Source: Candidatus Dormiibacterota bacterium (GTDB lineage: Bacteria; Patescibacteriota; Saccharimonadia; UBA4664; DATLOE01). Taken from it: a stretch of DNA of 64,000 bases. The stretch lies in assembly GCA_035536395.1 (NCBI GenBank), contig DATLOE010000018.1:16193-80192 (forward strand). Reading direction: 5' to 3'. Under the pieces are notes generated by a model, which was not told the DNA's origin, made no database searches, and was given only the letters and a program-made list of their open reading frames with translations. A program made the position numbers and the translations under genes. Positions 1 to 18,634 of the stretch are shown in pieces; position 1 is the stretch's first letter, and each line of letters opens with the position of its first letter.

Positions 1-1118
1 CTGCGGTAGAGTATGTTACTGAGGTATTAAACTTGAACCCAACAGCACTGGCTCCATCGGCTACGCTTGAGAACAGTATGCCGGCTGAAGTGTCTACCCC
101 TAGGTAGGTAGTAGCTCCGGCATCGTTCTGGACTCTAAAGGCAGTGGTTGAGGTCTTTTGGATAGAGTTAGTATTAGAGAAGGTATTGGCTGCACTTAAG
201 AGGGCTACATTACTACTTAAGGCACTGTCTGCTACCTTGCCAGCTGTCGAGATAGTATTAAGTTTAGAGTCAGCTATAGAGCCGGCTAGTTCAGCATTCT
301 CTATCAGCTGGCCTAAGAGTGAGACCGAGGAGTTTAGTCTGGCGTTATCTACTGTGCCAGAGGTTAGTTGAGTGGCATTAAGGGAGGTAAGTAAGACTCC
401 GGAAACAGCTGGCAGTTGGGTGGAGGCGTTTAGCTGTACCAACTGAGAAACCCCATTGAAGGTGTTGCCCTGGATGGTGACGTTGGAGCTTAGTGCACTA
501 TCTGCCACCTTGCCGGCAGTGGAGATTGTCAGCAGTTTACTATCAGAAATACTACCGGCCAGTTCTGCATTCTCTATGGTTTGGCCCAGTAGAGATACAT
601 TGGCAGACAGTCTCCCATCGGCTAGGGTGCCGGAAGATATATTAGTGGCATTAAGGGAGGTTAGTGAAGCACCTGAGCCGCTGAAAGTAGAGGCGATGAT
701 AGTGCCTGAAACATTGATGTTGCCGGTCTCTTGGACTCCGGGAGATGTGGCTTGCAACGATACACAAGTGCCATTAGGGCAGGTGGCAGTGCCAGAAGGG
801 CCCTGGGCACCAGTTGCACCTGTTGCACCAGTGGGGCCAGTTGAGCCTTGAAGACCTTGTTCTCCTTGCGGGCCGGCTGAGCCTTGGAGGCCGGTGGGGC
901 CTGGGGTACCGGCTGAGCCCTGGGGGCCTTGAGGCCCTGCCTCGCCAATCAAACCAACAGTGCCTTGTGATCCAACTGCACCCGTCATCCCCTGCTCGCC
1001 TTTGGGACCACGTTCACCGGGGTAGACAAGATGTCGGTCTGCCAAGAAGCCCGAGGTGGCACCTATAATGGTGGTGATTACAGATATTACTGCGAGCTTG
1101 CCGAAAGTAAGCTTCATA
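1..1118 (-). CDS. Collagen-like-repeat surface protein, partial (C-terminus beyond window start); paralog of 16159-18465
   Basis: Reverse-strand reading from ATG at 1116-1118 gives [43 protein letters not shown]..., i.e. a TM anchor, an ADR..YPGERG motif, then about 30 Gly-X-Y triplets ([28 protein letters not shown]...). Ser/Thr/Asn-rich repeats follow ([33 protein letters not shown] twice). There is no stop before position 1. Confidence 0.6.
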
Positions 1119-1284
1119 GGCAATAGTTCCCACCAGAAATATGCACGGATATATACTCCAACATATTCTCATTATATTGCTTATGCTTACCTGATGCAAC
1201 AGATTATGACTAATTGACAAAGTATATTAAACATTATACTGTCGTATAACTTTCTGCTGTCAGAAGATCTCGGAAGGAGTACAA

Positions 1285-1626
1285 ATGGAAATCCAGTTTT
1301 TCATTGGGTTTATTATCACATTTACAGCTTTCGCTTTTCTGTTGCATGGTCGCAACGTGGGGATAGGGCTATTTCTTGGAGTAGTAGTGTGGACAGGCAT
1401 ATGGATGATGGTGGAGTCTACAGAAAATTCGGCCAAGGACAGCGTCCTGTCCAACCTCAGCAAGCGCTGTGTCATAGAAGGCACCGTGTACCAATACCCT
1501 GGGCAAGACGTAAAAGCCGAGACCAAGAAGCTGCGCGAGGCGGTCTTTGACCGAGCCAAGTGCACGGGGTCAATCAGTCTCAAGGTAGTAAAACCCGAAG
1601 CAGCTGGGGGAGTAAATGGCAAATAG
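1285..1626 (+). CDS. Hypothetical small membrane protein
   Basis: 113-aa ORF with a hydrophobic N-terminal segment (FFIGFIITFTAFAFLL, GIGLFLGVVVWTGIWMMV). A TTGACA -35-like box lies upstream at about 1215. Chosen over the antisense ORF 1260-1622. Confidence 0.35.
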   Translation: MEIQFFIGFIITFTAFAFLLHGRNVGIGLFLGVVVWTGIWMMVESTENSAKDSVLSNLSKRCVIEGTVYQYPGQDVKAETKKLREAVFDRAKCTGSISLKVVKPEAAGGVNGK

Positions 1627-1975
1627 ACTGTTTACTCTCGCAGCAATAGTGGCAGTTCCGGCTCTAGTGATGGCGGTTGCCTGGGAGAACGTTTGGCTGA
1701 CGATTGCCATTCTGCTTTGCGCGTCGGCAGTCGTAGCCATTCCCATAATCGCCCACCGCTGTACAGACAACGGCCTTTGGCAGAAGTCAGATACTAACCG
1801 CCGGCGCGAACACCGCGCGATAATCGGCGTGCTGCTGGTTTTCGGAATAGCAATATTACTGGCAGCTTTGGGGCGTAATGGTATTCATGAACTTTCGCTT
1901 GGCCTGCTGTGTATCGCCACTCTGCTCTTGGTAGCTGGAGTCGTACTGCAGCCAGCCAAAAAAAGTAAATCATGA
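1616..1975 (+). CDS. Hypothetical membrane protein (3-4 predicted TM helices)
   Basis: 119-aa ORF overlapping the previous stop (ATGGCAAATAG); multiple hydrophobic helices. Confidence 0.4.
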   Translation: MANRLFTLAAIVAVPALVMAVAWENVWLTIAILLCASAVVAIPIIAHRCTDNGLWQKSDTNRRREHRAIIGVLLVFGIAILLAALGRNGIHELSLGLLCIATLLLVAGVVLQPAKKSKS

Positions 1976-2032
1976 TGCCCAAAGGGGCGTGAGTAGTTCT
2001 TCCGGCAGCCGCCAGATGAACGAAAGCGCCCC

Positions 2033-2623
2033 TTAAACTTTTTTGTTTTTAATATCTAAAATCTCAATTAAACGGTCTATTAAAGCTTCGGGGTTATCAT
2101 CGAACAGCACGGTGTGGCGGCGGCGCCTGGCGGCCTTAAGCACCTCGGCAATCGCGTCACTTATCCCACCCGAGCCAATTATTACCCCAATCGGCGTCTT
2201 CTCCTCAAAAGCGATAGAGAACTCCTGCATGGTGCCGATTCGCCCGCCAATAGTCACCAGCGCATCGCTGGCCCGGACCAGCAACAAGTCGCGCCCGGTA
2301 TAGCCGAACCCGGTACATACTATACTGTCGTACGATTTATATGGAAGCTTATAGGTATTAATGTGTTCACGGCGGCTGATGGCCGGGGAGAAACCAATTG
2401 AAACCCCGCCGGCCTTTTTGGCACCCATAGCCGCAAAATCGGGCAGCCCGGTGGTGGCGCCGGTTAGAAGCACATGCCCGCGCTTAGCAACACATACACC
2501 GGCTCGCTCGGCCAGCAGGTAAGATTTTTTAACGCTGCTGCCGCGAGCAGCACCGGAGACGCATATTTGATAGGGGTACTTTTTGCTCATGCTTCTCCTA
2601 TCATCAAAGCTTTTCCGGGGCAA
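2033..2623 (-). CDS. LOG-family / TIGR00725-like Rossmann-fold nucleotide-binding protein
   Basis: Motifs LLTGATTGLPDFAAMGAKKAGGVSIGFSP and GGIGTMQE..GVIIGSGG are typical of the LOG/SLOG lysine-decarboxylase-like fold. The likely start is the internal ATG at about 2592 (MSKKYPYQ). Confidence 0.55.
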   Translation of the reverse strand: MPRKSFDDRRSMSKKYPYQICVSGAARGSSVKKSYLLAERAGVCVAKRGHVLLTGATTGLPDFAAMGAKKAGGVSIGFSPAISRREHINTYKLPYKSYDSIVCTGFGYTGRDLLLVRASDALVTIGGRIGTMQEFSIAFEEKTPIGVIIGSGGISDAIAEVLKAARRRRHTVLFDDNPEALIDRLIEILDIKNKKV

Positions 2624-3830
2624 TTAGATCATTATTCAGCTTAACCAGTAACTGCTCTTCTAGCACTTTCTGCCCCATATAGCGGGCAAAGATCTCATTC
2701 CACAGCGATTCCCGGAAATGATATAAGTACCGGTCTTGGTATTTGAGTCCGTTAGAATAACTAAGCGAAATATCCATGAGATTGAAAGTAACGGGACCGT
2801 CTGGCTTCATAACCGCCACATAATCCATATCGCGCCAGGCAGTAAGGTACGGATCGACTTCATACAGAAGTTCCTCAGCCTTGCGCCAATGTAAATCCTC
2901 TGGCTGAACGTGGGGTTCAAAAATCTCGGGATGCGGCTCATTTTTTAGCTTACCAAAGTAGCGCTGTATAACCCGCCAGTGGATGTTCTGCCCTTGGGTA
3001 ATCGGAATATTCGGGGTATCGGCAATTAGGGTAGTGGCGACAATTTCACCAAAGTTCTGCTTGTTCTTAATCAGTTTAAAGAAAGAGCTGTACAAGCGGA
3101 TTTCATTAAAATAGTGGAAGATTAGCGGCATAATTTTAAGCGTGACACCCGGCATATGTTTGATTTTAATCGGCAGAATACAGATGGCGCCTAGCTCTTT
3201 GAGGTTGGTAATGTTATGCAGCTTCTTGGCTACAAAATGCTCGGTAATGCCGCCCCACTTTTTAGCATCAAAGCGGATTATCTGAATGTCACGCGGCTCA
3301 AAATCGCTGTGTTTCAGCTGAGCATACTGTGCATTAAACTCGTTCAGCCAATCGGCAGTTTCGGCAAAGCGTAGTGCACCGTAGATTTCAAAAACGTTTT
3401 CGTTCCGCAGCATTTCGGCCAGGTTCTTATAGCCCAGATGCTTTATAACCTCCTTAGGCGGCATTTTCTTCAGCAGTGCTTCAGCGACCTTCACCTTCAG
3501 GAAGCAGCCGGAGCGCGGCATATCTACCTGCTGGACATGCTTAAGAATCAGTGGAATCATCTGCGCTACATCGGCTGGATCACTGCCCCCGATAGCCTCA
3601 GCTAGTTGATGATCGTGCTTGGCTACTTGATCTATTAATGCCTGATACAGCTCGGGACCGGTACATTCCGGATCTAGCTTTAAACGCTTAATAAACTCGG
3701 CCGATTTTGTAGCTACTTCCGCCGTCAGCGCCACATCTACACCCTTGCGCCCGCTGCGATCCTCTAGTTGTTTTAGTGCTGTATCAAAGAGCGGCTGTTT
3801 GGCCTGTAAAAATTCCCCCAAGCGGCTCAT
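2604..3830 (-). CDS. Hypothetical protein (408 aa), translationally coupled to the upstream PfkB kinase
   Basis: Long clean ORF; its start overlaps the stop of 3827-4801 (ATGA). No family recognised by eye. Confidence 0.5.
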   Translation of the reverse strand: MSRLGEFLQAKQPLFDTALKQLEDRSGRKGVDVALTAEVATKSAEFIKRLKLDPECTGPELYQALIDQVAKHDHQLAEAIGGSDPADVAQMIPLILKHVQQVDMPRSGCFLKVKVAEALLKKMPPKEVIKHLGYKNLAEMLRNENVFEIYGALRFAETADWLNEFNAQYAQLKHSDFEPRDIQIIRFDAKKWGGITEHFVAKKLHNITNLKELGAICILPIKIKHMPGVTLKIMPLIFHYFNEIRLYSSFFKLIKNKQNFGEIVATTLIADTPNIPITQGQNIHWRVIQRYFGKLKNEPHPEIFEPHVQPEDLHWRKAEELLYEVDPYLTAWRDMDYVAVMKPDGPVTFNLMDISLSYSNGLKYQDRYLYHFRESLWNEIFARYMGQKVLEEQLLVKLNNDLIAPEKL

Positions 3831-4801
3831 ATGGAGGCTCTTTTTACTTTCATCCGCTTAACTTTATGCCCTTCCCGTAAAATTCCGGCTTTGGCTCCGA
3901 TCTGCTCCACTACAGAGGTCGAATTAGCGCTGCCTAGGCTCATGGCGTCTTCTATCGGCATGCCTTTGGCAATCGCGGCTACGAACCCAGAGCAAAAGGC
4001 GTCACCCGCGCCCAGCCTATCCACCACCTTCACCTTCTTATACTGACCGGTGTAGTAAATGATATTACCGACGGTAGCATAGCTGCCGCGAGGGCCGTCT
4101 GTCATCACCACGTAATGGCATTCCGGCATCGCGTTTACCATAGTTTCTACCGGCGTTTCGCCGCCGAACAGCAGCTGCATCTCTTGGCGGTTGGCCATTA
4201 GTATATGCACTTGGCTGAGCAGTTTGCGCAGCTTAGCGGCATTGGCCAGTTCTCCCCCGCCGGGGTTGAGTGCTACTTTTATGTTGTACTTACTTGCATG
4301 CAGCAATAAGCGCTTGAGTAATTCCAGATTACCGCTAAGCGAAGAGATGTAGAACCAATCGGCATCCAGAACTTGATTATAAAAATCCTCAGGGCGCAAA
4401 TAACTGGAGGCTCCACGATAAGAGAGAATAGTACGCTCACCATTGGGGGCCAGCAGAATAGTGGAGTATCCGGTGCCATGCTTGTGGTCTATTTTTACAT
4501 GACTGGTAATAATGCCCTCTTTCTTGAGTACCCTCATAATCTCGGCGCCGGCCGGATCGCGGCCGATTTTGCCAGAATATGAACTAGTGAGGCCTTGGCG
4601 GGCAAAGGTCACGGCCGCATTAGCCGCTCCGCCGCCAGTATCGTAATGCACAGCCTCAATATCGAGCTTGGCGCCCAGCGGAAACTGCTCCACATAGCTA
4701 TGGGTGCGTACATCACGCTTAGCTGCCAAGTTCTTGCCCATTAAAAACACATCTTGAGTGGCCGAACCGATAGAAATTACTCTGATATGCGAATGATCCA
4801 T
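3827..4801 (-). CDS. PfkB-family carbohydrate/nucleoside kinase (ribokinase-like)
   Basis: PfkB signatures: N-terminal GGGAANAAV (adenosine/ribokinase-like diGly) and C-terminal DRLGAGDAFCSGFV (anion hole/GAGD motif). Confidence 0.8.
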   Translation of the reverse strand: MDHSHIRVISIGSATQDVFLMGKNLAAKRDVRTHSYVEQFPLGAKLDIEAVHYDTGGGAANAAVTFARQGLTSSYSGKIGRDPAGAEIMRVLKKEGIITSHVKIDHKHGTGYSTILLAPNGERTILSYRGASSYLRPEDFYNQVLDADWFYISSLSGNLELLKRLLLHASKYNIKVALNPGGGELANAAKLRKLLSQVHILMANRQEMQLLFGGETPVETMVNAMPECHYVVMTDGPRGSYATVGNIIYYTGQYKKVKVVDRLGAGDAFCSGFVAAIAKGMPIEDAMSLGSANSTSVVEQIGAKAGILREGHKVKRMKVKRASI

Positions 4802-4878
4802 TTGCCTTAATTATACCGGTTATGGTTTAAAAAATATATCGTTTTTTGCAAAGTTTTCAGATTAAAGCTTGTAAATAT

Positions 4879-5442
4879 TTACTGCAGTGGCTTGGCGGTT
4901 TCAAAGGCTTGCTTCAGAAGCTTTTTCTGCTTGTCGGCCAGGCCTTTGGCCTCAGCAATATCTGAGCAGTAGGCCTGAGGTTCAGAAAATTCCACATGCA
5001 CGCTGCCAACCTTCTTGGCAGCCCCCGAATTGGGCAGGCTCAGCACCGAAGGGTCGCTGCCGAATTTAGTCATGGCGCCGATGGGTCCTTGCGCGGCAGC
5101 GCAGCCGGTATCAAGCTTGAGAAGCGACTTAGTGCTGAAGTAAACATAGGTGGCAGTGTAGGCCTTGCCGTTTGCGTCTGTTTCCTGCTGGTCGGCCTTG
5201 GTGTAGTAGATTAAGTCATCAAGCCCTTCGGGCAGAGTCATCTTAATGCCGAGCTCTTTTATACTAATGCTGCTTTCTTTCTTCTTTTCGGTCTTTTGCT
5301 CTTTTGCGCTGTTTTCCTGCACGGTGCGAATCTGAGTAGCCTGCCAGTACGCAAACCCAGCCAGAGCCAGAATAATCACTATTAAGATTATCTCGAATAA
5401 AAGCGTTCCGCGTTGGTTCTTAATTAAGTTTTTCATGCTCAC
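4879..5442 (-). CDS. Type IV pilin-like / pseudopilin protein
   Basis: N-terminus KNQRG|TLLFEIILIVIILALAGFAYW resembles a class III (prepilin) signal, with Glu at +5 after the Gly cleavage site and a hydrophobic helix. Confidence 0.5.
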   Translation of the reverse strand: MSMKNLIKNQRGTLLFEIILIVIILALAGFAYWQATQIRTVQENSAKEQKTEKKKESSISIKELGIKMTLPEGLDDLIYYTKADQQETDANGKAYTATYVYFSTKSLLKLDTGCAAAQGPIGAMTKFGSDPSVLSLPNSGAAKKVGSVHVEFSEPQAYCSDIAEAKGLADKQKKLLKQAFETAKPLQ

Positions 5443-5499
5443 TTCCTTGATTCTTCTTATGCTTAATAATGCCTTTTTACGGCCAAAAAGTCAAATTCT

Positions 5500-6405
5500 C
5501 TACTGTTTATTTGTAGAGGCATCGTATACGGCTGCAATAGTATCCTCTAGCATCTTATTAAACTCTTCATCGGTCTGGCTGGCACTTAAGCCCTCCGAGA
5601 GTGCTCTGTTAAAGCTGGCTATAACATTATGATTGCGCTTTAAGCGAACGCAAGCTTCGCGGGTTCCATAGCCCCCTGATAGCGCCAGAACTCTGATGAC
5701 CCGAGGATGCTCGGTAAGCGGGCGGTAAAAATCATCCTCCTCCGGCAAGGTCAGCTTAAGCATGACTTCCTGACCTGGGTTTAGGGCATCCAGCTCTGAC
5801 TGCAGTTGGCTGCGCAGCTCCTGCTCGCACTCAGCCTTATCCGCGGCATGAATGTCTACTTCGGGTTCTACGATCGGTACCAACCCGGCAGCTGTCACTT
5901 GGCGCGCAAACTCAAACTGCTGGCTGACTGCCTCGGCGATACCGGCCTTGGAGTAGCTTTTGATAAGCGAGCGCATCTTGGTGCCGAAGATGTTCTTCCC
6001 AGCGGCAAACGCGAGCAGCTCTGGCAGTCCTGGCACCGGCTTCATTAGCTGCACCCCATTTGATTCCTCGGCTAAACCATTATCGGTCTTCAGGAATGGC
6101 ACAATCTGTTTACGCTGCCACAAGTAATCAGCGCTATCCAGACCGTCTATCTGGCTCTCCGCGGTAGCCTTGAATAGAATCGCGCCTAATATACACTCGC
6201 CGCTAAAGGCTGGGCTGGTGACTATTCTAGTGCGCATTTTGTGGACCAGCTCAAACATTTCGGCCTCACTGGAGTACGCGCTCTCTGGTATGCCGTAGCT
6301 AGCCAAGGCGCCAGGTGTGCTGCCGCCACTTTGATCTAGGGCCGCAATGAACCCTTTACCTTGTTTGATTTTTTCTAATTGCTCACTACGCATATCAGGC
6401 CTCAA
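5500..6405 (-). CDS. fba: Fructose-bisphosphate aldolase, class I
   Basis: EQLEKIKQGKGFIAALDQSGGSTPGAL matches the bacterial class I FBA N-terminus (PRK05377-type: GKGFIAALDQSxGSTPKAL). Length is about 296 aa. The likely start is MRSEQLEK. Confidence 0.75.
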   Translation of the reverse strand: MRPDMRSEQLEKIKQGKGFIAALDQSGGSTPGALASYGIPESAYSSEAEMFELVHKMRTRIVTSPAFSGECILGAILFKATAESQIDGLDSADYLWQRKQIVPFLKTDNGLAEESNGVQLMKPVPGLPELLAFAAGKNIFGTKMRSLIKSYSKAGIAEAVSQQFEFARQVTAAGLVPIVEPEVDIHAADKAECEQELRSQLQSELDALNPGQEVMLKLTLPEEDDFYRPLTEHPRVIRVLALSGGYGTREACVRLKRNHNVIASFNRALSEGLSASQTDEEFNKMLEDTIAAVYDASTNKQ

Positions 6406-6808
6406 TTAAAGCTAGGTTACCATTAATGATGGTCGGCTGCATTCCCAGTAACTCATCACGCAAGATGCCATTTGGTACTGGATTATAAAAAAATATTTTC
6501 TTACCTAGCTCAAACGCTTTGTAAATTTCTAAAAAAGTCGCTCCGCCAATATAATTTTCTTGATCGTCTTTCTTATAATTAATCACTAAGATCGCATCGT
6601 TCAAAGCAATCTTTTTATTTTGCTCCTTAATCATCTCTGCCTTCCACTCAGCATGAGTAAGTTCGCCTTTGACACGCATTTCATCTTCGCGAGCAGGATT
6701 ATCAAAACTGTTTGGAAGGGTTATGGTGTGACCAGCTTCCTCGAGTGGTTTTTTAATTTCTAAAACTTTGTCATAAAACGCCTTACTGCAAACGATGAAA
6801 ATTCTCAT
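6395..6808 (-). CDS. Nucleoside 2-deoxyribosyltransferase-fold protein (DNPH1/Rcl-like (deoxy)nucleotide N-glycosidase candidate)
   Basis: MRIFIVCSKAF...NDAILVINYKK...IGGATFLEIYKAFELGKKIFF parallels the Rcl/DNPH1 pattern (YFCGSI...DVVVAEVT..SLGVGYELG.A...KPIL). Confidence 0.45.
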   Translation of the reverse strand: MRIFIVCSKAFYDKVLEIKKPLEEAGHTITLPNSFDNPAREDEMRVKGELTHAEWKAEMIKEQNKKIALNDAILVINYKKDDQENYIGGATFLEIYKAFELGKKIFFYNPVPNGILRDELLGMQPTIINGNLALIEA

Positions 6809-7767
6809 TTAACAAGTTCCTCGACAATTTTAACAATATGCGGGGCGGTCAGACCGAAATGCTCAAGCAGCTCATCTGGCTTGCCCGATTCACCGAACCT
6901 ATCTTTCATTCCAATCCTTCTTAGCGGCACGGGGTGGTTTTCGCCGACTAGTTCGGCAATCGCTCCGCCCAGGCCGCCGTTAATCTGAGCTTCTTCAACC
7001 GTAACCACTCGGCCGGTCTTGCGGATGGAAGCCAGCAAGGTCATTGTATCAAGCGGCTTTACAACCGGCACGTTTATGACCTCGGCCTTAATCTTCTTTT
7101 TAGCGAGCATCTCCGCTGCCTCAAGCGCTTGGTAGACCATCGGCCCGCAGGCCGCTATTGTGACATCGCTGCCCTCGCGGAATACCTGGGCTTTGCCCAG
7201 TGCAAAAGGCGTCTCGGCCGTTGTTACAATCGGAGACTTTTCGCGCGCCAGGCGGATATAGGCCGGGCCGGTGTGGGCGGCAATGGCCATGGTAGCCTTT
7301 TCGGCCTCCAGGCTGTCGCAGGGCACTACTACCATCATATTCGGCAGCGCGCGCATTAGGGCGATGTCTTCCAGCATCTGGTGGGTGGCGCCGTCTGGGC
7401 CCACCGATACTCCAGCATGGGAGCCGGCAATTTTAACGTTAGTATCATTCAGGCAGATGGTGGTGCGAATCTGCTCCCAGTTGCGCCCGGGGGAGAATGC
7501 CGCGTAAGAGGAAACGAACGGTACCTTGCCCACAAGGGCCATTCCGGCCGCAACCGTCACTAAGTTCTGCTCGGCCACGCCGACTTCCACGAAACGTTCG
7601 GGGAAAGCCTTGGCGAATCCGTCCATTTTGGTCGATTCGGTCAGGTCCGCGCACAGAGCCACAATCTGCCCATTGCGCTCCCCGGCCGTCACTAGCCCAC
7701 GACCGAAGCCGACGCGAATCGCCTCCTGCTCAACCTCCTTCTTATGCAAGTCTGGGTTGAGCTTCAT
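6805..7767 (-). CDS. tktB: Transketolase, C-terminal (pyrimidine-binding + C-terminal domain) subunit
   Basis: 320 aa with GFGRGLV...EVGVAEQNLVTVAAGMA...DGATHQ..EDIALMRALPNM; overlaps the upstream tkt N-terminal subunit by 4 bp. Confidence 0.85.
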   Translation of the reverse strand: MKLNPDLHKKEVEQEAIRVGFGRGLVTAGERNGQIVALCADLTESTKMDGFAKAFPERFVEVGVAEQNLVTVAAGMALVGKVPFVSSYAAFSPGRNWEQIRTTICLNDTNVKIAGSHAGVSVGPDGATHQMLEDIALMRALPNMMVVVPCDSLEAEKATMAIAAHTGPAYIRLAREKSPIVTTAETPFALGKAQVFREGSDVTIAACGPMVYQALEAAEMLAKKKIKAEVINVPVVKPLDTMTLLASIRKTGRVVTVEEAQINGGLGGAIAELVGENHPVPLRRIGMKDRFGESGKPDELLEHFGLTAPHIVKIVEELVK

Positions 7768-8612
7768 TCGTGCTCTCCACGAATACGCCCTTTAAGCGTT
7801 CTCAATTCATGCAAAGCTTTTTTGGCCTCCTCTTTATTCGGCGGTTTGCCGTGCCAGCGGAAATCATGCTCCATAAAGTCCACTCCCTTGCCCGGTGTGG
7901 TGTAGGCGATTATTACGGTCGGTTGTTCGCTGACTGATTTAGCCATATTGCAGGCATCAATAACTTGCTGCATATTATGGCCGTCGATTTCAACTACGTG
8001 CCAGCCGAATGCCCGCCACTTGGCCGGCAGGTCTTCCAGCGGCATTACGGTCTCGGTTGGGCCATCGATCTGAATATTATTGCGGTCGATAATGGCGGTA
8101 AGATTATGCAGATTGTATTTGGCGCCGAACAGAGCGGCCTCCCAAATGTTCCCCTCCTCCAGCTCGCCGTCGCTCATCAAGCAGTATATACGTCTATCTT
8201 TTACGCCATCTATTTTCAGTGCCATTGCCATACCACAGGCCTGAGAAAGCCCGCTGCCCAAGGGGCCGCTAGTGGTTTCCATACCCGGCAGGCGTTTGCG
8301 CTCCGGATGGCCCTGCAGTCGGGAGCTGAATTTGCGCAGAGTCGCAAGCTCACTAACGGGAAAATACCCGGCCCTAGCCATAGTGGCATAACGCACCGGC
8401 ACAATGTGGCCATTCGAAAGCACTAGCCTATCGCGCTCCGGCCAATCGGGGTCCTTTGGGTCGTGGCGCAGAATTCTAAAGTACAGGGCCGTAAAAATAT
8501 CGGCCATGCCAAGCGGGCCGGCCGAGTGCCCGCTGCCGGCTTGTACCAGCATCTTAATTATGTCCTGCCGGATCTCGTTAGCCTGCTTCTCTAGCTGGGG
8601 TATCGTCATCAT
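7764..8612 (-). CDS. tktA: Transketolase, N-terminal (TPP-binding) subunit
   Basis: 282 aa with SGHSAGPLGMADIF...LVLSNGHIVPVRYA...GPLGSGLSQACGMA...MSDGELEEGNIWEA, the split-transketolase arrangement. Confidence 0.85.
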   Translation of the reverse strand: MMTIPQLEKQANEIRQDIIKMLVQAGSGHSAGPLGMADIFTALYFRILRHDPKDPDWPERDRLVLSNGHIVPVRYATMARAGYFPVSELATLRKFSSRLQGHPERKRLPGMETTSGPLGSGLSQACGMAMALKIDGVKDRRIYCLMSDGELEEGNIWEAALFGAKYNLHNLTAIIDRNNIQIDGPTETVMPLEDLPAKWRAFGWHVVEIDGHNMQQVIDACNMAKSVSEQPTVIIAYTTPGKGVDFMEHDFRWHGKPPNKEEAKKALHELRTLKGRIRGEHE

Positions 8613-9256: not shown

Positions 9257-9259
9257 GGC

Positions 9260-9703: not shown

Positions 9704-9716
9704 GATTGCTCCTTAC

Positions 9717-10724
9717 TCAAATAGTTCTGCCTACTAGTACGATCTCTTCCACCATGCGATTGCAGTAACCCCATTCGTTATCGTACCAAGCTACGACCTT
9801 TACCAAATTACCGCCGACTACGTTTGTAAGCTTCAGGTCGGCAATGGCTGAAAAAGTATTACCAATGAAATCACTGGAAACAAGCTCCTCTTCGGTCACG
9901 GCCAAAATATGCTTGAGGCGCGGGCTTTGAGATGCATGTATTAGGGCTGCGTTTACCTCCTCTATCGTCGTATCCTTTTTGGTCACAAAGGTAAAATCGC
10001 TCAGGCTGACAACCGGTGTTGGCACCCGAATGCTCAGGCCCTCAAAAATACCCTTAAGCGCGGGGAAGGCCCGGGCGGCCGCCTTAGAGGCGCCGGTTGT
10101 AGTCGGCACAATGTTCTCAGCAGCATTGCGCGCCTCGCGCAGATCCTTGGCCGGCCCGTCCTGCAAGGCTTGGCTGGCGGTATAGGAGTGAATAGTGGTC
10201 ATCATGGCCTTTTCTATACCGAATTCGGCCTCTATTACAGCCGCTACCGGGGTAATGCTATTGGTGGTGCAGGAGGCATTGGAAACCACGGTGTCTTTGG
10301 CACTAATCTGATCTTCATTTACACCAATGACGTAGGTGGGAATAGTTTCTTCTTTGGCCGGAGCAGAAATAATTACGCGCTTAGCGCCAGCAGTCAGGTG
10401 CTTTTTGGCATCTTCATAATGGGTAAAACGGCCGGTACTCTCTACCACCACATCAATGGCCAGCTCTTTCCACGGCAGAGCGGCCGGATCTTTTTCGGCC
10501 AGTACCTGGACTTTATGCTTACCGACAATAATATGCTGTTCGTCGCAATCGACTTCTTGATGGTAAAGGCCGTAGTTCGAATCGTGTTTTAAGAGATGAG
10601 CCAGGGTCTTGGTATCAGTTAGGTCGTTGACAGCTACCACCTCCAGCTCCGGATTATCGAAGGCGATCTTGAAGGTATTGCGGCCAATGCGGCCAAACCC
10701 ATTAATAGCGACTCGAATAGCCAT
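9717..10724 (-). CDS. gap: Glyceraldehyde-3-phosphate dehydrogenase (type I)
   Basis: INGFGRIGR NAD-binding, ASCTTNS active-site region, WYDNEWGY C-terminal signature. Confidence 0.9.
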   Translation of the reverse strand: MAIRVAINGFGRIGRNTFKIAFDNPELEVVAVNDLTDTKTLAHLLKHDSNYGLYHQEVDCDEQHIIVGKHKVQVLAEKDPAALPWKELAIDVVVESTGRFTHYEDAKKHLTAGAKRVIISAPAKEETIPTYVIGVNEDQISAKDTVVSNASCTTNSITPVAAVIEAEFGIEKAMMTTIHSYTASQALQDGPAKDLREARNAAENIVPTTTGASKAAARAFPALKGIFEGLSIRVPTPVVSLSDFTFVTKKDTTIEEVNAALIHASQSPRLKHILAVTEEELVSSDFIGNTFSAIADLKLTNVVGGNLVKVVAWYDNEWGYCNRMVEEIVLVGRTI

Positions 10725-10790
10725 ATGTCTGTTTTTGCCTGTTTACAGGAGTAATTATATAAGCATTAGCGCTTTACTACAAGGTAATAA

Positions 10791-11324
10791 CTAGGGTACC
10801 AGCTCTGGTCCTTTATCGAGATGGCTTTTGTAAAATTCAATAATCTGCTTTTCATCGACATTATCGAGATTTAGGGTGTATGTCCAGGCCGCCAATTGGA
10901 CGGCGTTGCTGTTTTTGGCTCTTGGCACCACAATCGCTTTGATGCTGCCAAACTGTTGGCTGCGGGGCAAAGTATTAAACAAGTTCTTTAGCTTATCTAT
11001 CTGGGCCTTCGGCAGATCCGGCTTGTAAGCGATTACAATACCACCGTGCTCCATATTATGTATTAATGTCTCGTCGGCCAGCTCCTGCTCTTTTACCCCC
11101 CAGGGAGCAGGGCTTGTGTAATGCGGCCCAGAGCTGGGCAGATCGGAATTATAAGGCTCATGGGCAGCGCCGTTTGTAATGTGTTCCTGGCCCTGATCGG
11201 CATGCTTGGTACCGGCATTTGTCTTCGTGCTCGGAGTCTCGGCCGGCGGCTTGTTGCCCCCGCCTAAGTAAAAAACACCGATCATAACTGCTGCGACTGC
11301 AGCGACAGCTACACCTAACCACAT
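10791..11324 (-). CDS. DUF3105-like membrane-anchored protein
   Basis: N-terminal TM helix, then IHNMEHGGIVIAYKPDL and AIVVPRAKN...AAWTY, typical of DUF3105. Confidence 0.5.
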   Translation of the reverse strand: MWLGVAVAAVAAVMIGVFYLGGGNKPPAETPSTKTNAGTKHADQGQEHITNGAAHEPYNSDLPSSGPHYTSPAPWGVKEQELADETLIHNMEHGGIVIAYKPDLPKAQIDKLKNLFNTLPRSQQFGSIKAIVVPRAKNSNAVQLAAWTYTLNLDNVDEKQIIEFYKSHLDKGPELVP

Positions 11325-11377
11325 ATTACTTCCTTTGCGTACCGCTTAATAAAACAATAAATAGTATAACAAGCTTT

Positions 11378-11418
11378 AATAAAAAGCCGAACCCCGGACG
11401 CGTTATGCGTCCGGGGCT
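11378..11418 (-). terminator. Rho-independent terminator after 11430-11795
   Basis: On the minus strand: hairpin CCCCGGACGC-ATAAC-GCGTCCGGGG followed by TTCGGCTTTTTATT. Confidence 0.6.
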
Positions 11419-11429
11419 TATTGTTACCG

Positions 11430-11795
11430 CTATGCTGCAATGACCGTTTGCTGTTGCTTGCCCGATGTAACCGGCAAGCCTTTACCCCTGATCATGCTTC
11501 TGGAAACATCAACTGATCTGTATGACAGCCTCAGATGGCCGGCCTTAAGATGTTCTTCGCAGTGGATCAGGGCCTCCAAAAGCCGTTCACGCCGTACCAT
11601 CACCTTGACGCTGCGGAATTTGTCTCTCAGAACCCGATTACGATCGCGCTCAGTCAACCGATCCATAACCTCTCCGGTTTCCGTATGCACGCTCCGAAAG
11701 CCATTCCAGGCAAGCATCAGAGCTACGGCTTGAAGTCGGTTGTAGTCGGGTTCAAAGTGAACCAACTCCCACGTTCCGTCCATCTCCCACCTCAC
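11430..11795 (-). CDS. Hypothetical protein (121 aa), GC-rich, adjacent to an aberrant tRNA
   Basis: Clean ORF with its own terminator; no recognisable family. Confidence 0.4.
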   Translation of the reverse strand: MRWEMDGTWELVHFEPDYNRLQAVALMLAWNGFRSVHTETGEVMDRLTERDRNRVLRDKFRSVKVMVRRERLLEALIHCEEHLKAGHLRLSYRSVDVSRSMIRGKGLPVTSGKQQQTVIAA

Positions 11796-11816
11796 TAGCG
11801 GTTGTACTGTACAAGA

Positions 11817-11886
11817 TCAGGGTGGCTGGACTCGAACCAACAACCGACAGCTGTGCCATCCGCTCTACCAATTGAGCTACACCCTG
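11817..11886 (-). tRNA. tRNA-like gene with canonical acceptor/D/T arms but a non-canonical anticodon arm (identity undetermined; possible pseudo-tRNA)
   Basis: Minus-strand read CAGGGTG-TA-GCTCAATTGGTAGAGC-G-GATGGCACAGCTGTCGG-TT-GTTGGTTCGAGTCCAGC-CACCCTG-A. The 7-bp acceptor, D arm, T arm (GGTTCGAGTCC) and U8 are fine. The 17 nt where the anticodon arm should be do not fold into a 5-bp stem with a 7-nt loop carrying U33. The variable region is only 2 nt and no CCA is encoded. Confidence 0.45.
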
Positions 11887-11912
11887 AAGTTTTCCGTCGC
11901 AATAATGTCACT

Positions 11913-11938
11913 ATTAAAAACGGCCTCTGTTGAGGCCT
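11913..11938 (-). terminator. Rho-independent terminator after the cupredoxin gene
   Basis: Minus strand: GAGGCCTCAACAGAGGCC then GTTTTTAAT. Confidence 0.55.
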
Positions 11939-12089
11939 CTGTAACTTACTGCTTTTAGTTAGCGTACATGAAGCCTCACTGTTGCCGTATCGGCAGCAGC
12001 ACAACAAAGGCGCGAATAATTGCGTTGTGCGTGTAAGTCTTCACGAAGAATAAACTACTCCTGGTAGCCTCGGTTGTCAATCCCTCAGG

Positions 12090-12476
12090 CTACTCAGTGA
12101 CAATGACGGTACCTGTCATCCCTGCATGCGGCTGGCAAAGATAGGTATAAGTACCGGCTTTGGTAAAAGTAAAGCTGTAGCTTTCACCCTTACCCAAAAG
12201 TGCGCTCCTTGGGCCATCGGTCTGATCACTGATTACATCATGCAAGTCTGCATCTTGGTTGGTCCATGTGACTAGGGTGCCCTTTTTAATGGTGATGGTC
12301 TTGGGGTTAAAGGCAGTATTTTGCATGATAACCTCATTTGTGGCCACAGGGTTTTCAGATGAAGAAGCTGGCTGCTCCAATGTTTGTGGTTGTCTGCCAC
12401 CACCTAGGTACATATAGGTGCCGACTCCGGCGGCAGCTAGCAGAATTACTAGAACGATAATAGTAAACTTCTTCAC
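12090..12476 (-). CDS. Cupredoxin (plastocyanin/azurin-like type-1 copper protein), membrane-anchored
   Basis: N-terminal TM helix, with the His of DLHDV and a C-terminal YLCQPHAGMTG (Cys-x-x-His-x-x-Met blue-copper ligand set). Confidence 0.7.
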   Translation of the reverse strand: MKKFTIIVLVILLAAAGVGTYMYLGGGRQPQTLEQPASSSENPVATNEVIMQNTAFNPKTITIKKGTLVTWTNQDADLHDVISDQTDGPRSALLGKGESYSFTFTKAGTYTYLCQPHAGMTGTVIVTE

Positions 12477-13159
12477 TATTTCTCCTTGTATTTATCGTTA
12501 AATTGGCTGATCGCACCCTGAGCCAGCTGGTCGGCTAGCTGGCCTAGTTTGCCTACATCGGCCTTTTCCCGCTCGAACGATTTAGCATACTCCCCCGCCC
12601 GGTAAGCGTCTGCTACAGATTTAACCAAACCGATATGTTCATCTAGATGCTTCTTCAGGTTAGCTTTAGAGAGCTGGGGGTTAAGCTCGGCGAGCGAGCC
12701 GATGACTTTTTCTATGTTTGTATTCAGCTCAGAGGCTTTGGCGGTAATTGCAGTCTGGTCTCCTCCTTTAATCGCTTCTGCATAGGTCCGAATAGATTTG
12801 GTGTAAGTGTCCCAGGCAACTCTAACTTGCTTTGCTTTATCTTCCCCATAGTCATCGGCCAGCAGTTTCTGGAGATCACTGGAATTCTCATCCAGGCTGG
12901 CTGAAGCCAAATCAAGATAAGGCGCTCCGTCTAGTGTCGCCCGAGTTAATCTTGCTGAAAGGCCGGCATGTGCGCTAAAGACAGTGTTTAACTCCACCCG
13001 TAAATTGGCAGCCTTTGTGTAGGCATCCGCCTGGCTAGCGACTGGTGTAGTTGGAATAAGTTGGTTTGCGATTAGCACACTACCACCAAAACCTGCACCT
13101 ATGCCCAGTAACACAGATATTAAGGCTACCGTCAGACTTGATGTTTTATCTGGTTCCAT
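12476..13159 (-). CDS. Hypothetical membrane-anchored helical protein
   Basis: 227 aa, N-terminal TM, Ala/Lys-rich helical remainder. The stop overlaps the cupredoxin start, so it is probably co-transcribed. Confidence 0.45.
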   Translation of the reverse strand: MEPDKTSSLTVALISVLLGIGAGFGGSVLIANQLIPTTPVASQADAYTKAANLRVELNTVFSAHAGLSARLTRATLDGAPYLDLASASLDENSSDLQKLLADDYGEDKAKQVRVAWDTYTKSIRTYAEAIKGGDQTAITAKASELNTNIEKVIGSLAELNPQLSKANLKKHLDEHIGLVKSVADAYRAGEYAKSFEREKADVGKLGQLADQLAQGAISQFNDKYKEK

Positions 13160-13187
13160 GATTCTTACTTATTTTAGCATAAGCGCT

Positions 13188-14141
13188 TTAATACTGAGGC
13201 GATTTGGCAGGACGACGGTTCATGGAATCTATGTGATGGCGTATGGCAATAGCAGCTGTAACCCCCTCCCCCACGGCGCTTGCGATCTGGCCGGTAGAGC
13301 CCCCACGAATGTCGCCGGCCGCAAATACGCCAGGCTGACTGGCAGCAAAGTTCTTATCGACTTTTACAAACCCTCGTTCGTCCAACGCCACAGCACCCTT
13401 CACCCAACCGGTATTCGGAATAAGACCGATGAATACAAAAGCGCCGTCGGCCTGAATGTGGCTCACTTCACCGGTTTTGGTATTACGAATGGCAGCACCG
13501 GTAAACTTCCCTTCCTCACTATCAAAGCTATCAACCGCGGTATTAAACTGAATGTCGATCTTGGGGTTCTGCACCGCCTGCTCAGCCAGGATTTGTGTGC
13601 CTTTTAGGGCCGGTCCGCGCACCAGCATTGTCACTTTATCAGCAAACTTGGTTAAAAACTGACCTTCTTGCAGAGCCGAGTTACCGCCTCCTATAGCCAG
13701 CAAATGCTTACCGCGGTAAAAAGCGCCGTCGCAAGTAGCACAGTAATGCACCCCCTTGCCGGTCAGCTCCTTCTCTCCCAGTACACCCAGCTTTCGGTAT
13801 GCCGTACCCATGGCGAGCAAGATGGCCTTGGCTTTAAATTCCCCGCCTGAAGTCGTAACTGCTACACCTTCTTCATGGCTTGCAATCGATTGCACCCGAA
13901 TGCCGGTTTTTATCTCGGCGCCGAAGCGCTTAGCCTGCTTACATAAATTATCGGCCAGCTCAATACCGCCGATGCCCTCTGGGAACCCCGGGTAGTTATC
14001 GACATGCTCGGTGGTGGCTATCATTCCACCTACCACCTCAGCTTCCAAAACCATCGTCTTTAAATCTTCACGCGTAGTGTAGATGGCGGCAGCTAGGCCG
14101 GTGGGACCAGCACCGACTATGACTACATCATATTCCTCCAC
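13188..14141 (-). CDS. trxB: Thioredoxin-disulfide reductase
   Basis: VVIVGAGPTGLAAA FAD site, CATCDG redox-active disulfide, GGGNSA NADPH site, FAAGDIR. Confidence 0.9.
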   Translation of the reverse strand: MEEYDVVIVGAGPTGLAAAIYTTREDLKTMVLEAEVVGGMIATTEHVDNYPGFPEGIGGIELADNLCKQAKRFGAEIKTGIRVQSIASHEEGVAVTTSGGEFKAKAILLAMGTAYRKLGVLGEKELTGKGVHYCATCDGAFYRGKHLLAIGGGNSALQEGQFLTKFADKVTMLVRGPALKGTQILAEQAVQNPKIDIQFNTAVDSFDSEEGKFTGAAIRNTKTGEVSHIQADGAFVFIGLIPNTGWVKGAVALDERGFVKVDKNFAASQPGVFAAGDIRGGSTGQIASAVGEGVTAAIAIRHHIDSMNRRPAKSPQY

Positions 14142-14142
14142 G

Positions 14143-14397
14143 TTAAATCCCCAGTGCTTGGCTTAATCGCTGCTGATCGAATCCCAGAATATGCTCTTCA
14201 CTACCGTCGTTTTTTTGAATGACAGTAAAAGGCACTGCCAGCTGACCGCTGGCTTTTACCATCTCTTCGGCCGCTTTTTGGTCGGTATCCACCGCAACTT
14301 CTTCAAAAGCTATATTGTGTTCGGCAAGAAACTCTTTTTCGGCCCCGCAAAATTTACAGGTAGCCGTGGTGTAAATCTTAACTTTTGGCATAACCAT
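14143..14397 (-). CDS. Glutaredoxin-like protein (YruB/NrdH-like)
   Basis: 84 aa, KIYTTATCKFCG CxxC motif in a thioredoxin fold; immediately upstream of trxB. Confidence 0.7.
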   Translation of the reverse strand: MVMPKVKIYTTATCKFCGAEKEFLAEHNIAFEEVAVDTDQKAAEEMVKASGQLAVPFTVIQKNDGSEEHILGFDQQRLSQALGI

Positions 14398-14442
14398 CCT
14401 TTGTTCTTACACATTATACCAGTTAAGCACAAGCAGTTTAAT

Positions 14443-15018
14443 TTAATTTGGTTTGTTGTTGGGATTGCCTCTATTGCCGGGACTAGCCTTCACCTCATTA
14501 GTCTTGGCTTTTTGATCTTCGTGTTTGCCGCCAGCCGGGCTGTTTTTTTGAAGACCCAGGCCATTACCTGGTACAGCCTCTGGCCTGCCTGGCGTGGTCG
14601 GTGCAGCAGGAGCCGGAAGAATAATTGATGCCGGCTGGGTACCTGGAATTTTCTGGGCAGCATTAGGCGCAGCGGGCACAGTACCGGGTACCTGGCTCCA
14701 TATCCCGCGCATTATCTTAGTATCGGACTCTGTAATGGGGGCTGTTTTCTGTCTCTCGCCTAAGATACGGGTAAACTGTTTGGTGTCATATAAGAGCAAG
14801 GCCGCATTAGCGACAATTAAGACAGTCATTAGCATTGGTGGGAGGATTCCTCTTAAAAACTTATGGCGGAGCCTAATAGCTCGGCGCACTTTTTCTAAAT
14901 CCTGCCCGCTCAAGTATTTTTCCAGCTCAGTCGGGCAGACACGGCTAGTTGCACCATCCCCGAAAGATAATAGAACAGTTTGATCGCTCTCTACACTGAA
15001 ATCTTTTAATACCCTCAT
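14443..15018 (-). CDS. Hypothetical protein with one TM segment and a Pro-rich C-terminal tail
   Basis: 191-aa ORF; low-complexity PAAPNAAQKIPGTQPASIILPAPAAPTTPGRPEAVPG. Confidence 0.4.
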   Translation of the reverse strand: MRVLKDFSVESDQTVLLSFGDGATSRVCPTELEKYLSGQDLEKVRRAIRLRHKFLRGILPPMLMTVLIVANAALLLYDTKQFTRILGERQKTAPITESDTKIMRGIWSQVPGTVPAAPNAAQKIPGTQPASIILPAPAAPTTPGRPEAVPGNGLGLQKNSPAGGKHEDQKAKTNEVKASPGNRGNPNNKPN

Positions 15019-15134
15019 AGTTAAATTATATCAAGTAATATCACCATTAGGCTTTAAAAACATTAAAAACGTAAGTTCTATCTGTTATTTAAAAGCATAA
15101 ACCCATTGGAACCAGCTTCCTATATAATGGTGAT

Positions 15135-16118
15135 ATGAAGAAGATTCCGATTACTGCCATTACCGGCTTTTTGGGCTCAGGCAAGACCACCCTGCTCAAC
15201 CATATTCTGGAAAACAACCAGGGTTTAAAAATCGGCGTGGTCGTGAATGATTACGGGCAGATTAATATCGATTCCAAGCTGATTGCCGCCCGCACAGATA
15301 AAACGCTAGAGCTGACCAACGGCTGTATGTGCTGCAGTTTGAGTTCGCTAGAGCTAGATGAAGCCATTAGCCAGTTCGCCCACCCCGGCAGCCAGATAGA
15401 TTACATTATTATAGAAGCAAGTGGACTGGCCGAGCCTTCAGACCTGGCCGCCACCCTGCGCGCTGCCATGGGCCGCTACACCCGGCTAGACAGCATCATT
15501 GCGATTATTGATGCCTACAATTTAGAGAAGAATGCCGCAGAACACGATTCGGCTATACGTCAGATAGAATACAGCGACTTTGTGATTATTAATAAGACCG
15601 ATCTGGTGCCGAAGAGCAAAGTCGATGATATAACCAAACTGATTAAAGGCATGAACGAACGGGTGCGCATTTTTACGGCCAAGCACGCCCAGGTGGATGT
15701 GCGTTTGCTCCTGGGTCAGGAACCGGAGCGGGCTGAGCACAAGGAACCAGGGCATAAACACAAGCACGCGCATGATGATTATTCCAGTGTCAGCTTTGAG
15801 ACAGATAAGGCCTTAGACCCGCTGAAGTTCCAGAACTTCGTGAACAAGCAAATACCAAATGAAGTTTACCGGGCTAAAGGCTTCGTGAACTTAGGTAATA
15901 AAGGCCACCGACGCAAATATCTCTTTCAGTTGGTAGGCAAACGAGCCGACATTACCTGGACAGACTGGGGCGAGGAAAAGCCCCAGACTGCTCTGGTGTT
16001 TATAGGCAAAGGGTTCGATAAAGCCAAGACACTCGCGCAAATTGAGGCTTGTATTGATCCGGAACCAACTAAGTACGATCCTGGTATTGAGGTGGTACTC
16101 CCCCGCCGGGAGCTATAG
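15135..16118 (+). CDS. CobW/COG0523-family GTPase (zinc metallochaperone-like)
   Basis: GFLGSGKTTLL P-loop, GCMCC (CxCC) motif, His-rich tract HKEPGHKHKHAHDD, CobW C-terminal domain. Confidence 0.85.
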   Translation: MKKIPITAITGFLGSGKTTLLNHILENNQGLKIGVVVNDYGQINIDSKLIAARTDKTLELTNGCMCCSLSSLELDEAISQFAHPGSQIDYIIIEASGLAEPSDLAATLRAAMGRYTRLDSIIAIIDAYNLEKNAAEHDSAIRQIEYSDFVIINKTDLVPKSKVDDITKLIKGMNERVRIFTAKHAQVDVRLLLGQEPERAEHKEPGHKHKHAHDDYSSVSFETDKALDPLKFQNFVNKQIPNEVYRAKGFVNLGNKGHRRKYLFQLVGKRADITWTDWGEEKPQTALVFIGKGFDKAKTLAQIEACIDPEPTKYDPGIEVVLPRREL

Positions 16119-16158
16119 CTTACTGTTTGCTATCTGTTCACCTTCAAGGCAAGTGTAG

Positions 16159-18465
16159 TTATTCTTGAACCATATAATAGAAGACTCTCTCGATTGTATC
16201 CGGTTCGGCTATTTTTATGGTAAAGCCGATTTTATCGCTTTCTATAGAGTAAATTATAGGCGTGCCTACTGGGCTGGCAACAATGAATGGTTTGGTGCTG
16301 TATGGTTTTAGGAAAGCTTTATGGACAGATGTCTGCCCCGCTGGAATTACAACTTCTCCTCTAGTGTCTTCGTTGCCTTTTATGTGGCCGGCAATCGTTA
16401 TGCCCCCTTCGAAGGTGGCAGTACCGGTTACTACTAAGTTATTAATGGTAGCTGTACCGGATACGTTTAGGTTTGCGAAGTCACTGCCCTGACCCTGCAC
16501 TTGCTCTAGAGTCGCAATTCTTTGTTCAAGGCCTTTGGTTTTTGCATCAAGTTCTGTAGTGGCTTTAATGTTCAGGATGCCCAGGCCGGTGTAGTCTAGG
16601 GTTTTATAACCATTGCTGTCGGTTGAGACTAAGCTTGGGAATAGTAGTTCTACGTCTTGGGCAATTAGACCGGTTTGAGTAGCCGTGCCAAAGTTGTACT
16701 CTGGGAACTCATCACTGCGCCAATCATAATTCACGACCTTTAGCTGGCCGAAGCTAGAGAGTATATCTGATACATTCGTAATGTTCTTTTTTAACCTTTC
16801 ATCTGAGGAACAGCTGCCGGCTATGACTGTGGCATCGGCATCCTTCACACAGCCGGTGGTACCAGTTCCAACCCTCAGATCATCATCGGTTCTAAGTTCA
16901 TTAGCCGCCCCGCGGTAGAGGTTGGTATCGGCGACATTGGTACCATCGCTCCAGTCATGCTTGCCAGTAGCATTAATTACAAAGCGATTTTGTGTTTCTC
17001 CGCTGACAAAGGTAGTGAAAGAATTACCAGCAGTAGTCTGGTTAATTGAACCGATTCGCCCACCCGTGACTCCTGTTCCTCCTACAATAAAACCGCCAGT
17101 TTGATCGGTACGAAGCACCGGGAGCCCCGCACTGGTAGATCTGTAAAGACTGGTGTCGCGGACACTGGCTCCACCTGGACCCCATTCCATAGACCCGTCC
17201 GCCCTGATGGCAAAGCGATTGATGCTATCGCTAGTAACAGCTGACAAATATGCAAGATCGCTAGCCGATGCCCTAAGAGATCGTAATGAGCCGTCAGTTT
17301 GTAATACTCCTACTCCTTGGCGATAGAGGTTAGTGTCGGTGCCAAAAGTTATACCCCCAGCAGCGGTTCCCCCAGTATCAGACAGCTGCAAGGTATAGGT
17401 ATCAGCCTTGGCGATCCTGACTCCGATATCCGAGATAATACCCGCAGTCTGGCCGGCAACATCAATCCCAACAGAATTTTGCAGTAAGTTATTGTTTGAG
17501 CTACTATTCTGCACCAACAAGCCGGTTGCCCTAGTAACAGTGCCAGTGATGGCTGTCGCAGCAAACTCGGCCAACCCCTGGACTTGAGCACCGTATGTAT
17601 TGGTAATAGTACCAAAGCTTTGGCCAGCACCTGGAATCCAGGTAGCCAACCGGCCGCCTATAAGTGATGTCGCGCTGCCACTACCCTGCCATCGGGTTTC
17701 GAAATGTCCGCCCATGACATTACCAGTAAGTGTTTGGGTATTGGTGGTTGGAACTTCCGCTGACATTACGAACGATCGAAACTCAGTCGAGGAGCTTGAA
17801 GCTGGGTTGACCATGATTGAACTATGTACACCAGCAGTAGCACCAGGCGCAGTATTACTAAGGGTGCCAAAGAAATTTACAAACCCATCTGTAATTAACC
17901 CCGCTCCAACCCCCAAGCTACCCATTACATGCAAGTTCCGGCTCGGCGTAGCAGTGCCAATGCCCACATAGCCATTGCTGGTATCGACATTTAGAATCGT
18001 ACCCCCTGCCGTATTCTGTACGCCGAAAGCAGTAGTAGAATCGGTATTATTCCTAAACAGCTGATTATTACCAGTGAAAGTCTGGGAGTTGCGGTCGAGT
18101 AAGGCGACGTTAGAAGATAATTGGGAGTCGCCAATGCTGCCACTAGGGCCTTCGGGGCCTTGGTCGCCAATGGCACCTTGCAAACCCTGTGGGCCAATCT
18201 CGCCTGCTAGACCTATGGTGCCATCTTGCCCATCTATGCCATTAGCACCGTTAATCCCGGCTGTTCCGGTTTGGCCACGCTCACCTGGGTAGGTAATGAA
18301 CCGGTCGGCTATAAGGCCAGCCGAAGCTCCGATGATGACAACTGTAGTTAATAAGAAGAGTTTATTTAAAAGGAGGTGGCCAGATTGGTTTCGGAGCGGG
18401 AATAAATCACTACCACCCCCTCCTAGTCGGGGGTGGAGTTGTATGGATTTAGAAAGATTAAGCAA
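16159..18465 (-). CDS. Membrane-anchored collagen-like fibre protein with phage-tail-fibre peptidase S74 (intramolecular chaperone) domain
   Basis: 768 aa. TM anchor and ADRFITYPGERG motif are followed by 18 Gly-X-Y triplets at about 18135-18300. A long Gly/Thr/Ser/Asn-rich beta-rich region follows. SDERLKKNITNV...VVNYDWRSDEF...GLIAQDVELLFPSLV (S74 auto-processing motif, Ser-Lys dyad) sits at about 16480-16815. Then a coiled coil and a C-terminal domain shared with the giant protein. Confidence 0.7.
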   Translation of the reverse strand: MLNLSKSIQLHPRLGGGGSDLFPLRNQSGHLLLNKLFLLTTVVIIGASAGLIADRFITYPGERGQTGTAGINGANGIDGQDGTIGLAGEIGPQGLQGAIGDQGPEGPSGSIGDSQLSSNVALLDRNSQTFTGNNQLFRNNTDSTTAFGVQNTAGGTILNVDTSNGYVGIGTATPSRNLHVMGSLGVGAGLITDGFVNFFGTLSNTAPGATAGVHSSIMVNPASSSSTEFRSFVMSAEVPTTNTQTLTGNVMGGHFETRWQGSGSATSLIGGRLATWIPGAGQSFGTITNTYGAQVQGLAEFAATAITGTVTRATGLLVQNSSSNNNLLQNSVGIDVAGQTAGIISDIGVRIAKADTYTLQLSDTGGTAAGGITFGTDTNLYRQGVGVLQTDGSLRSLRASASDLAYLSAVTSDSINRFAIRADGSMEWGPGGASVRDTSLYRSTSAGLPVLRTDQTGGFIVGGTGVTGGRIGSINQTTAGNSFTTFVSGETQNRFVINATGKHDWSDGTNVADTNLYRGAANELRTDDDLRVGTGTTGCVKDADATVIAGSCSSDERLKKNITNVSDILSSFGQLKVVNYDWRSDEFPEYNFGTATQTGLIAQDVELLFPSLVSTDSNGYKTLDYTGLGILNIKATTELDAKTKGLEQRIATLEQVQGQGSDFANLNVSGTATINNLVVTGTATFEGGITIAGHIKGNEDTRGEVVIPAGQTSVHKAFLKPYSTKPFIVASPVGTPIIYSIESDKIGFTIKIAEPDTIERVFYYMVQE

Positions 18466-18634
18466 TCTTAGTTTCAGCTGACTTCCCTCTCACTCACAAA
18501 CCTTAAATCTGAATATTATTATAATGGTTATGGTTAAGGCTGGCAACAGGTTTGTTGCCAAAGTTTACAGATTACAGTTTTCAGCTTGCAGTTCTCGCTT
18601 CGCCTTCTATTGCAAGGGGGCTCCTTGCAAGAAG

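Follow-up and report, generated by a model that had tools for sequence, protein, structure and literature searches.

Several described systems resemble the proteins considered here. The mosaic adhesive trimer (MAT) fibres of Bdellovibrio bacteriovorus are trimeric, and their producer lives on other bacteria; the fibres form a multigene family of long, phage-tail-fibre-like proteins with an invariant N-terminal part beside the producer cell, variable C-terminal tips (some of lectin type), subgroups with and without S74, and a proposed diversification by 'tip swapping' (Caulton et al. 2024, PMC10769870). Phage fibres and tailspikes whose C-terminus is an S74 domain (K1F endosialidase, T5 pb1, S16 gp37) have a Ser-x4-Lys dyad and a Gly-rich shaft before S74, and some phage families place collagen repeats ahead of it. 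On cell or spore surfaces, Scl1/Scl2 of Streptococcus and BclA of Bacillus anthracis bear a globular trimeric head on a collagen triple-helix stalk, with trimerisation nucleated by a non-collagen domain; Scl has a C-terminal anchor (LPXTG) and an N-terminal head, and BclA is attached to the exosporium via its N-terminus. To our knowledge neither has S74/G2 chaperones or phage-fibre shafts. Myelin regulatory factor (MYRF), a eukaryotic protein with a C-terminal anchor, undergoes trimerisation-dependent self-cleavage that parts the anchored from the free portion, the latter being a transcription factor.

Here we examined a 64,000-nucleotide stretch (the window) of the metagenome-assembled genome (MAG) of an uncultured bacterium with a small genome. 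A first-pass annotation had described three genes in it, A, B and a giant gene (Table 1), as a family of three paralogs that share modules at both termini. As a whole that description fails, since A and the giant protein share nothing, the giant lacks the N-terminal module and A lacks S74. A and B do have a common N-terminal part, in which, as annotated, an anchor helix and ADR(H/F)..YPGERG lead into Pfam-recognised collagen (BLASTP 55% over 69 aa, E 8e-18), as well as a further block outside the collagen, SSNVALL...TTAF.VQN (E 7e-5). The homology claimed for the terminal ∼100 aa of B and the giant also stands: their pairwise match is weak (48 aa, E 4e-4), and an HMM built from giant-type termini only gave B 27.7 bits, against 10.5 bits for the best of 500 shuffled B termini. 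Pairwise comparison of A with the giant revealed no similarity, and no fourth member was found within the window. All three proteins are similarly rich in Gly (12–14%), Thr (12%) and Ser (9–13%), Gly-X-Y repeats supply part of the A–B score and the B–giant pairwise match is faint, as would be expected if the similarity were a low-complexity coincidence; however, the conservation of non-repetitive motifs (the anchor helix, ADRxxxYPGERG and a further 20-residue motif), the margin over the shuffled profile scores and the single fold family predicted or assigned for both termini leave this explanation next to no probability. It is refuted for the A–B pair and the B–giant C-termini; A and the giant are the one pair to which it applies.

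Table 1. Features of the three fibre genes; coordinates are nucleotides of the window.
Feature	Position	Strand	Details
Gene A	1..1117	-	First 372 of 526 codons; translation, 100% match to P0107 (locus tag VNA68_02850)
A anchor helix	1040..1096	-	aa 8-26; single, hydrophobic; Kyte-Doolittle 1.98 over 19 aa plus flank charges
A juxtamembrane motif and collagen	785..1042	-	aa 26-111; 12-residue motif, then 26 unbroken Gly-X-Y triplets
A CPNGTC Cys pair	764..781	-	Immediately past last triplet; direct reading
A conserved connector ('joint')	2..232	-	Includes SSNVALL and a further 14-residue stretch
Gene B	16159..18465	-	768 aa, TTG start; identical to P0001, NCBI name 'tail fiber domain-containing protein'
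Promoter-like site	18518..18546	-	TTGCCA-17-TATAAT, 11/12 matches, ∼50 nt upstream of B start; consensus match only
B anchor helix	18304..18360	-	aa 36-54, behind ∼35-aa predicted cytoplasmic tail
B juxtamembrane motif and collagen	18124..18309	-	aa 53-114; ADRFITYPGERG motif, then 18 Gly-X-Y triplets
B connector	17941..18129	-	aa 113-175; includes TTAFGVQNTAG..VDT; common to all paralogs
B shaft	16831..17940	-	aa 176-545; Gly/Thr/Ser-rich, with NLYR...TDD joints
B S74 intramolecular chaperone domain	16486..16830	-	aa 546-660, short coiled coil at end; Pfam, alignment to S16 gp37 and MYRF
B post-chaperone add-on	16162..16485	-	aa 661-768; short beta-strand stem, then beta-sandwich
Giant gene	55934..64000	-	>2688 codons visible; start beyond nt 64000
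Giant N-terminal hydrophobic helix	63809..63865	-	Visible aa 46-64; N flank +4
Giant internal duplication	59130..60327	-	274-nt copies at 59130-59403 and 60054-60327, 87% identical
Giant S74 domain	57062..57385	-	aa 2206-2313; Ser2213 and Lys2218 in 10-residue motif
Giant phi29-gp12-type (peptidase G2-like) beta-tulip autochaperone domain	56486..56914	-	aa 2363-2505; motif GA-D2373-LG-E2376-KY
Giant terminal H-type-lectin-like domain	55937..56281	-	aa 2574-2688; homologous to B terminus

Gene A runs off the window as annotated, its C-terminal 154 aa lying to the left, but its ATG is at 1117, not 1118; likewise, the ∼18 collagen triplets given for the smaller run are those of B, whereas the ∼30 claimed for A number 26. 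A genome-wide search for copies, which the first-pass annotation had proposed, returned at least five further anchor/collagen members in the MAG, all outside the window, and left the giant outside that family. Judged by sequence similarity, the real family is this N-terminal-anchor/collagen family, with A and B as its two members in the window. Common to A, B, P0002, P0003, P0006, P0115 and P0190 is an N-terminal module of signal-anchor helix, AD(R/Q)xxxYPGE(R/Q)G, Gly-X-Y triplets and conserved connector. Five of the seven are placed in one MAG by locus tags, B is on A's contig, and P0006 shares a 100,311-bp contig with one of the five. All seven have just one hydrophobic helix, its N flank positively charged and its C flank neutral or negative; in A the charges (+2 and 0) predict an N-in/C-out orientation. 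The family's collagen, with uninterrupted Gly-X-Y runs and Pfam scores above cut-off (E 3.1e-14 in A, 3.9e-08 in B), is its most conserved part. The CPNGTC pair of A, found also in P0115, P0190, P0196, P0200 and P0214, may be an inter-chain disulfide staple.

The middle regions vary, as had been noted, these being modular surface proteins of fibre type with differing middles and tips. A and P0115 are 80% identical over 343 aa and then have unrelated tips, the tip of P0115 is 66–67% identical to those of P0003 and P0006, and B matches P0002 at 72% identity over residues 422–536. The exchanged blocks are bounded by junction motifs, and the connector of A is where paralog similarity changes partner; from these alignments the family appears to diversify by block exchange at short conserved 'joints', NLYR..TDD and TTAFQVQNAAG..VDT. 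In full-length A (P0107, 526 aa) collagen was the only Pfam domain, and neither S74 nor a B-like terminus was found; its tip is a small beta domain with matches among phage virion proteins. Other paralogs of the MAG, outside the window, have a Kelch propeller or a HylP-type triple beta-helix as tips. If the fibres were a coat giving non-specific protection or spacing, a 'hairy nap' as with Bacillus BclA or streptococcal Scl, collagen might well be their most conserved part, and an anchor at the N-terminus, a stalk of collagen and a globular trimer at the C-terminus follow the BclA/Scl plan. Seven paralogs with swapped lectin, Kelch-propeller and triple-beta-helix tips are, however, not obviously needed for a coat, and such folds are typical of binding or glycan-processing modules, so that we consider a coat unlikely.

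Gene B, whose translation gives the 768 aa annotated, has tail-fibre relatives over most of its length. PHROG phage tail-fibre profiles align to residues 284–650 and 449–655, phrog_8745 is collinear with residues 61–658 from collagen through S74, and the S74 region was matched by tblastn against 50,697 phage records. The matched phage profiles end with the chaperone, at about residues 650–656 of B; B extends 112 aa more and the giant ∼375 aa. S74, which had been recognised in both proteins from its motif, passes the Pfam cut-off in each (B, aa 554–613, E 1.6e-13; giant, aa 2213–2267, E 2.2e-11). Within SSDERLKKNI of B, Ser554 (nt 16804–16806) is the putative nucleophile and Lys559 (nt 16789–16791) the putative base, with the spacing of phage S16 gp37 (SSDRRIKKDI), Bdellovibrio Bd3182 (SDxxxK) and T5 pb1 (Ser1264/Lys1269). 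As in the phage fibres, a Gly-rich shaft precedes S74, and B has collagen ahead of it. S74 ends the protein in MATs, whereas here further domains follow; the ICA domain of MYRF, which we aligned, is likewise S74-type, not C-terminal and in a membrane-anchored protein.

The giant gene extends beyond nucleotide 64000, as annotated: the frame is open to that point and its start must lie outside the window because no in-frame start codon occurs among the first 128 visible codons. Its Gly/Thr/Ser/Asn-rich product has 18 Cys, all in nine close pairs, as expected of an extracellular protein. The visible sequence has a transmembrane helix, and no ADR/YPGERG motif, collagen or connector motif was found in it. 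The duplicated copies are identical at 82 of 100 aa, with a spacing of 308 aa. The C-terminal cassette runs S74, phi29-gp12-type autochaperone, coiled coil, lectin-like domain. As in the autochaperone of the phi29 gp12 pre-neck appendage (MEROPS/Pfam Peptidase_G2; PDB 3gqh, 3suc), a D-x-x-E motif stands at the domain start, and it aligns with the residue at which the released phi29 fragment begins; similarity to Pfam Peptidase_G2 was below detection in the giant and sub-threshold in two relatives. Unlike that of phi29 gp12, the domain is downstream of S74 and is followed by the coiled coil and lectin-like domain. The giant, a very long fibre, stands apart: its class is another, very widespread one, and only two C-terminal domains are common to it and B.

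The terminal fold of B (∼aa 700–768) is a six-strand beta-sandwich of H-type-lectin-like/tailspike-C-terminal type. The domain matches H-type lectins as well as tailspike and R-pyocin-fibre C-terminal domains (2ccv, 2w94, 7w1c, 7eea, 6cu2, 6cl6), with Helix pomatia agglutinin and discoidin among the matches, and Pfam K1-lyase_C matches a relative, P0073. It stands at the extreme C-terminus of a presumably trimeric fibre, as in tailspikes and pyocin fibres, but there it comes before the chaperone domain and here after it. Pfam H_lectin is just at threshold in the giant (cut-off 24 bits; 24.6 bits when a 489-aa piece is scored, 21.6 bits for the protein as a whole) and has no match in B, a point against the proposal made below. 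Since the same fold ends the K1 lyase, K64-1 depolymerase, LKA1 and phi297 tailspikes, the fibres might instead be surface-tethered glycan-degrading enzymes that let the cell feed by breaching the capsule or wall of a neighbour, the lectin-like domain being an accessory module; a HylP hyaluronidase-type domain in P0003 (E 1e-26) and a LysM-CHAP hydrolase gene in the window (44349–45551) would suit this. Yet domain searches of A, B and the giant revealed no catalytic domain, the B shaft has only fibre-type matches, and the P0003 match covers the triple-helix part (profile positions 56–160 of 161), which does not establish catalysis. Such enzymes seem to us unlikely, slightly more so than a coat.

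S74, the phi29-gp12-type autochaperone, HylP in a paralog, the PHROG matches and the terminal fold agree with the phage receptor-binding-protein ancestry suggested for parts of these proteins. The other window genes examined are cellular housekeeping genes, indicating that, as first noted, the window contains no prophage; among the ∼60 window ORFs examined, none was recognised as a capsid, terminase, portal, sheath, tube, baseplate or integrase gene. Fibres mounted on the baseplate of a virus-like particle, be it a prophage, a tailocin or an extracellular contractile injection system (eCIS), would explain why every distal module has phage tail-fibre relatives, and eCIS fibres have been reported with collagen shafts, beta-propellers, H-lectin and S74 together (PMC12923769). 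This reading is nevertheless very improbable given the lack of particle genes, the scattering of the three genes among housekeeping genes, and the promoter-like site before B, which suggests its own transcription unit. Moreover, all seven paralogs begin with a membrane helix in place of a baseplate-attachment domain, and neither the G2-like nor the terminal domain of giant type was found by pattern scans of 2.9 million viral contigs.

We therefore favour, at a probability of roughly 0.55, the reading that A and B are membrane-anchored collagen-stalk surface fibres with shuffled phage tail-fibre tips, in a family of at least seven, that the giant is a separate fibre class, and that these proteins serve in recognition. 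By analogy with the Bdellovibrio MAT fibres, they are best read as trimeric adhesins, self-anchored fibres that the cell has domesticated from phage receptor-binding proteins. Compared by description, the two systems agree in being multigene families of long, tail-fibre-like proteins with a constant cell-proximal part, variable tips that include lectin types, and S74 and non-S74 subgroups. They differ in host lineage and at the N-terminus, where MATs have a cleaved signal peptide and a ∼130-aa beta-rich domain without collagen, and a membrane helix is followed within ∼10 residues by collagen here. Phage fibres have a virion-attachment domain in place of this membrane anchor; alternatively, the helix may be a signal peptide that is cleaved off. 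The collagen stalk with a probably trimeric globular head recalls Scl and BclA.

Each fibre would be laid out as a signal-anchor helix in the cell's own membrane, juxtamembrane motif, collagen-like stalk, connector, and variable shaft and tip. After Sec export, a homotrimer would be nucleated by the C-terminal chaperone domains, and zipping of shaft and collagen stalk would proceed toward the membrane. Self-cleavage, probably by the Ser/Lys dyad of S74 and the Asp/Glu motif of the G2-like domain, would then free a trimer of the chaperone and lectin parts and leave the shaft tip exposed, unless the piece remains bound as a cap. For an N-anchored fibre it is an awkward arrangement to have the lectin-like domain behind a self-cleaving chaperone, because cleavage would discard the putative binding domain. 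The exposed fibres may bind glycans or proteins on other cells, which for an epibiotic small-genome bacterium would be its host. The NCBI label of the genome is Dormibacteraeota, so that this host-recognition setting (epibiotic Saccharimonadia) is not secured. It is plausible that the fibres are tools for recognising other cells, and their mosaic block exchange is the pattern that a role in host specificity or antigenic variation would predict.

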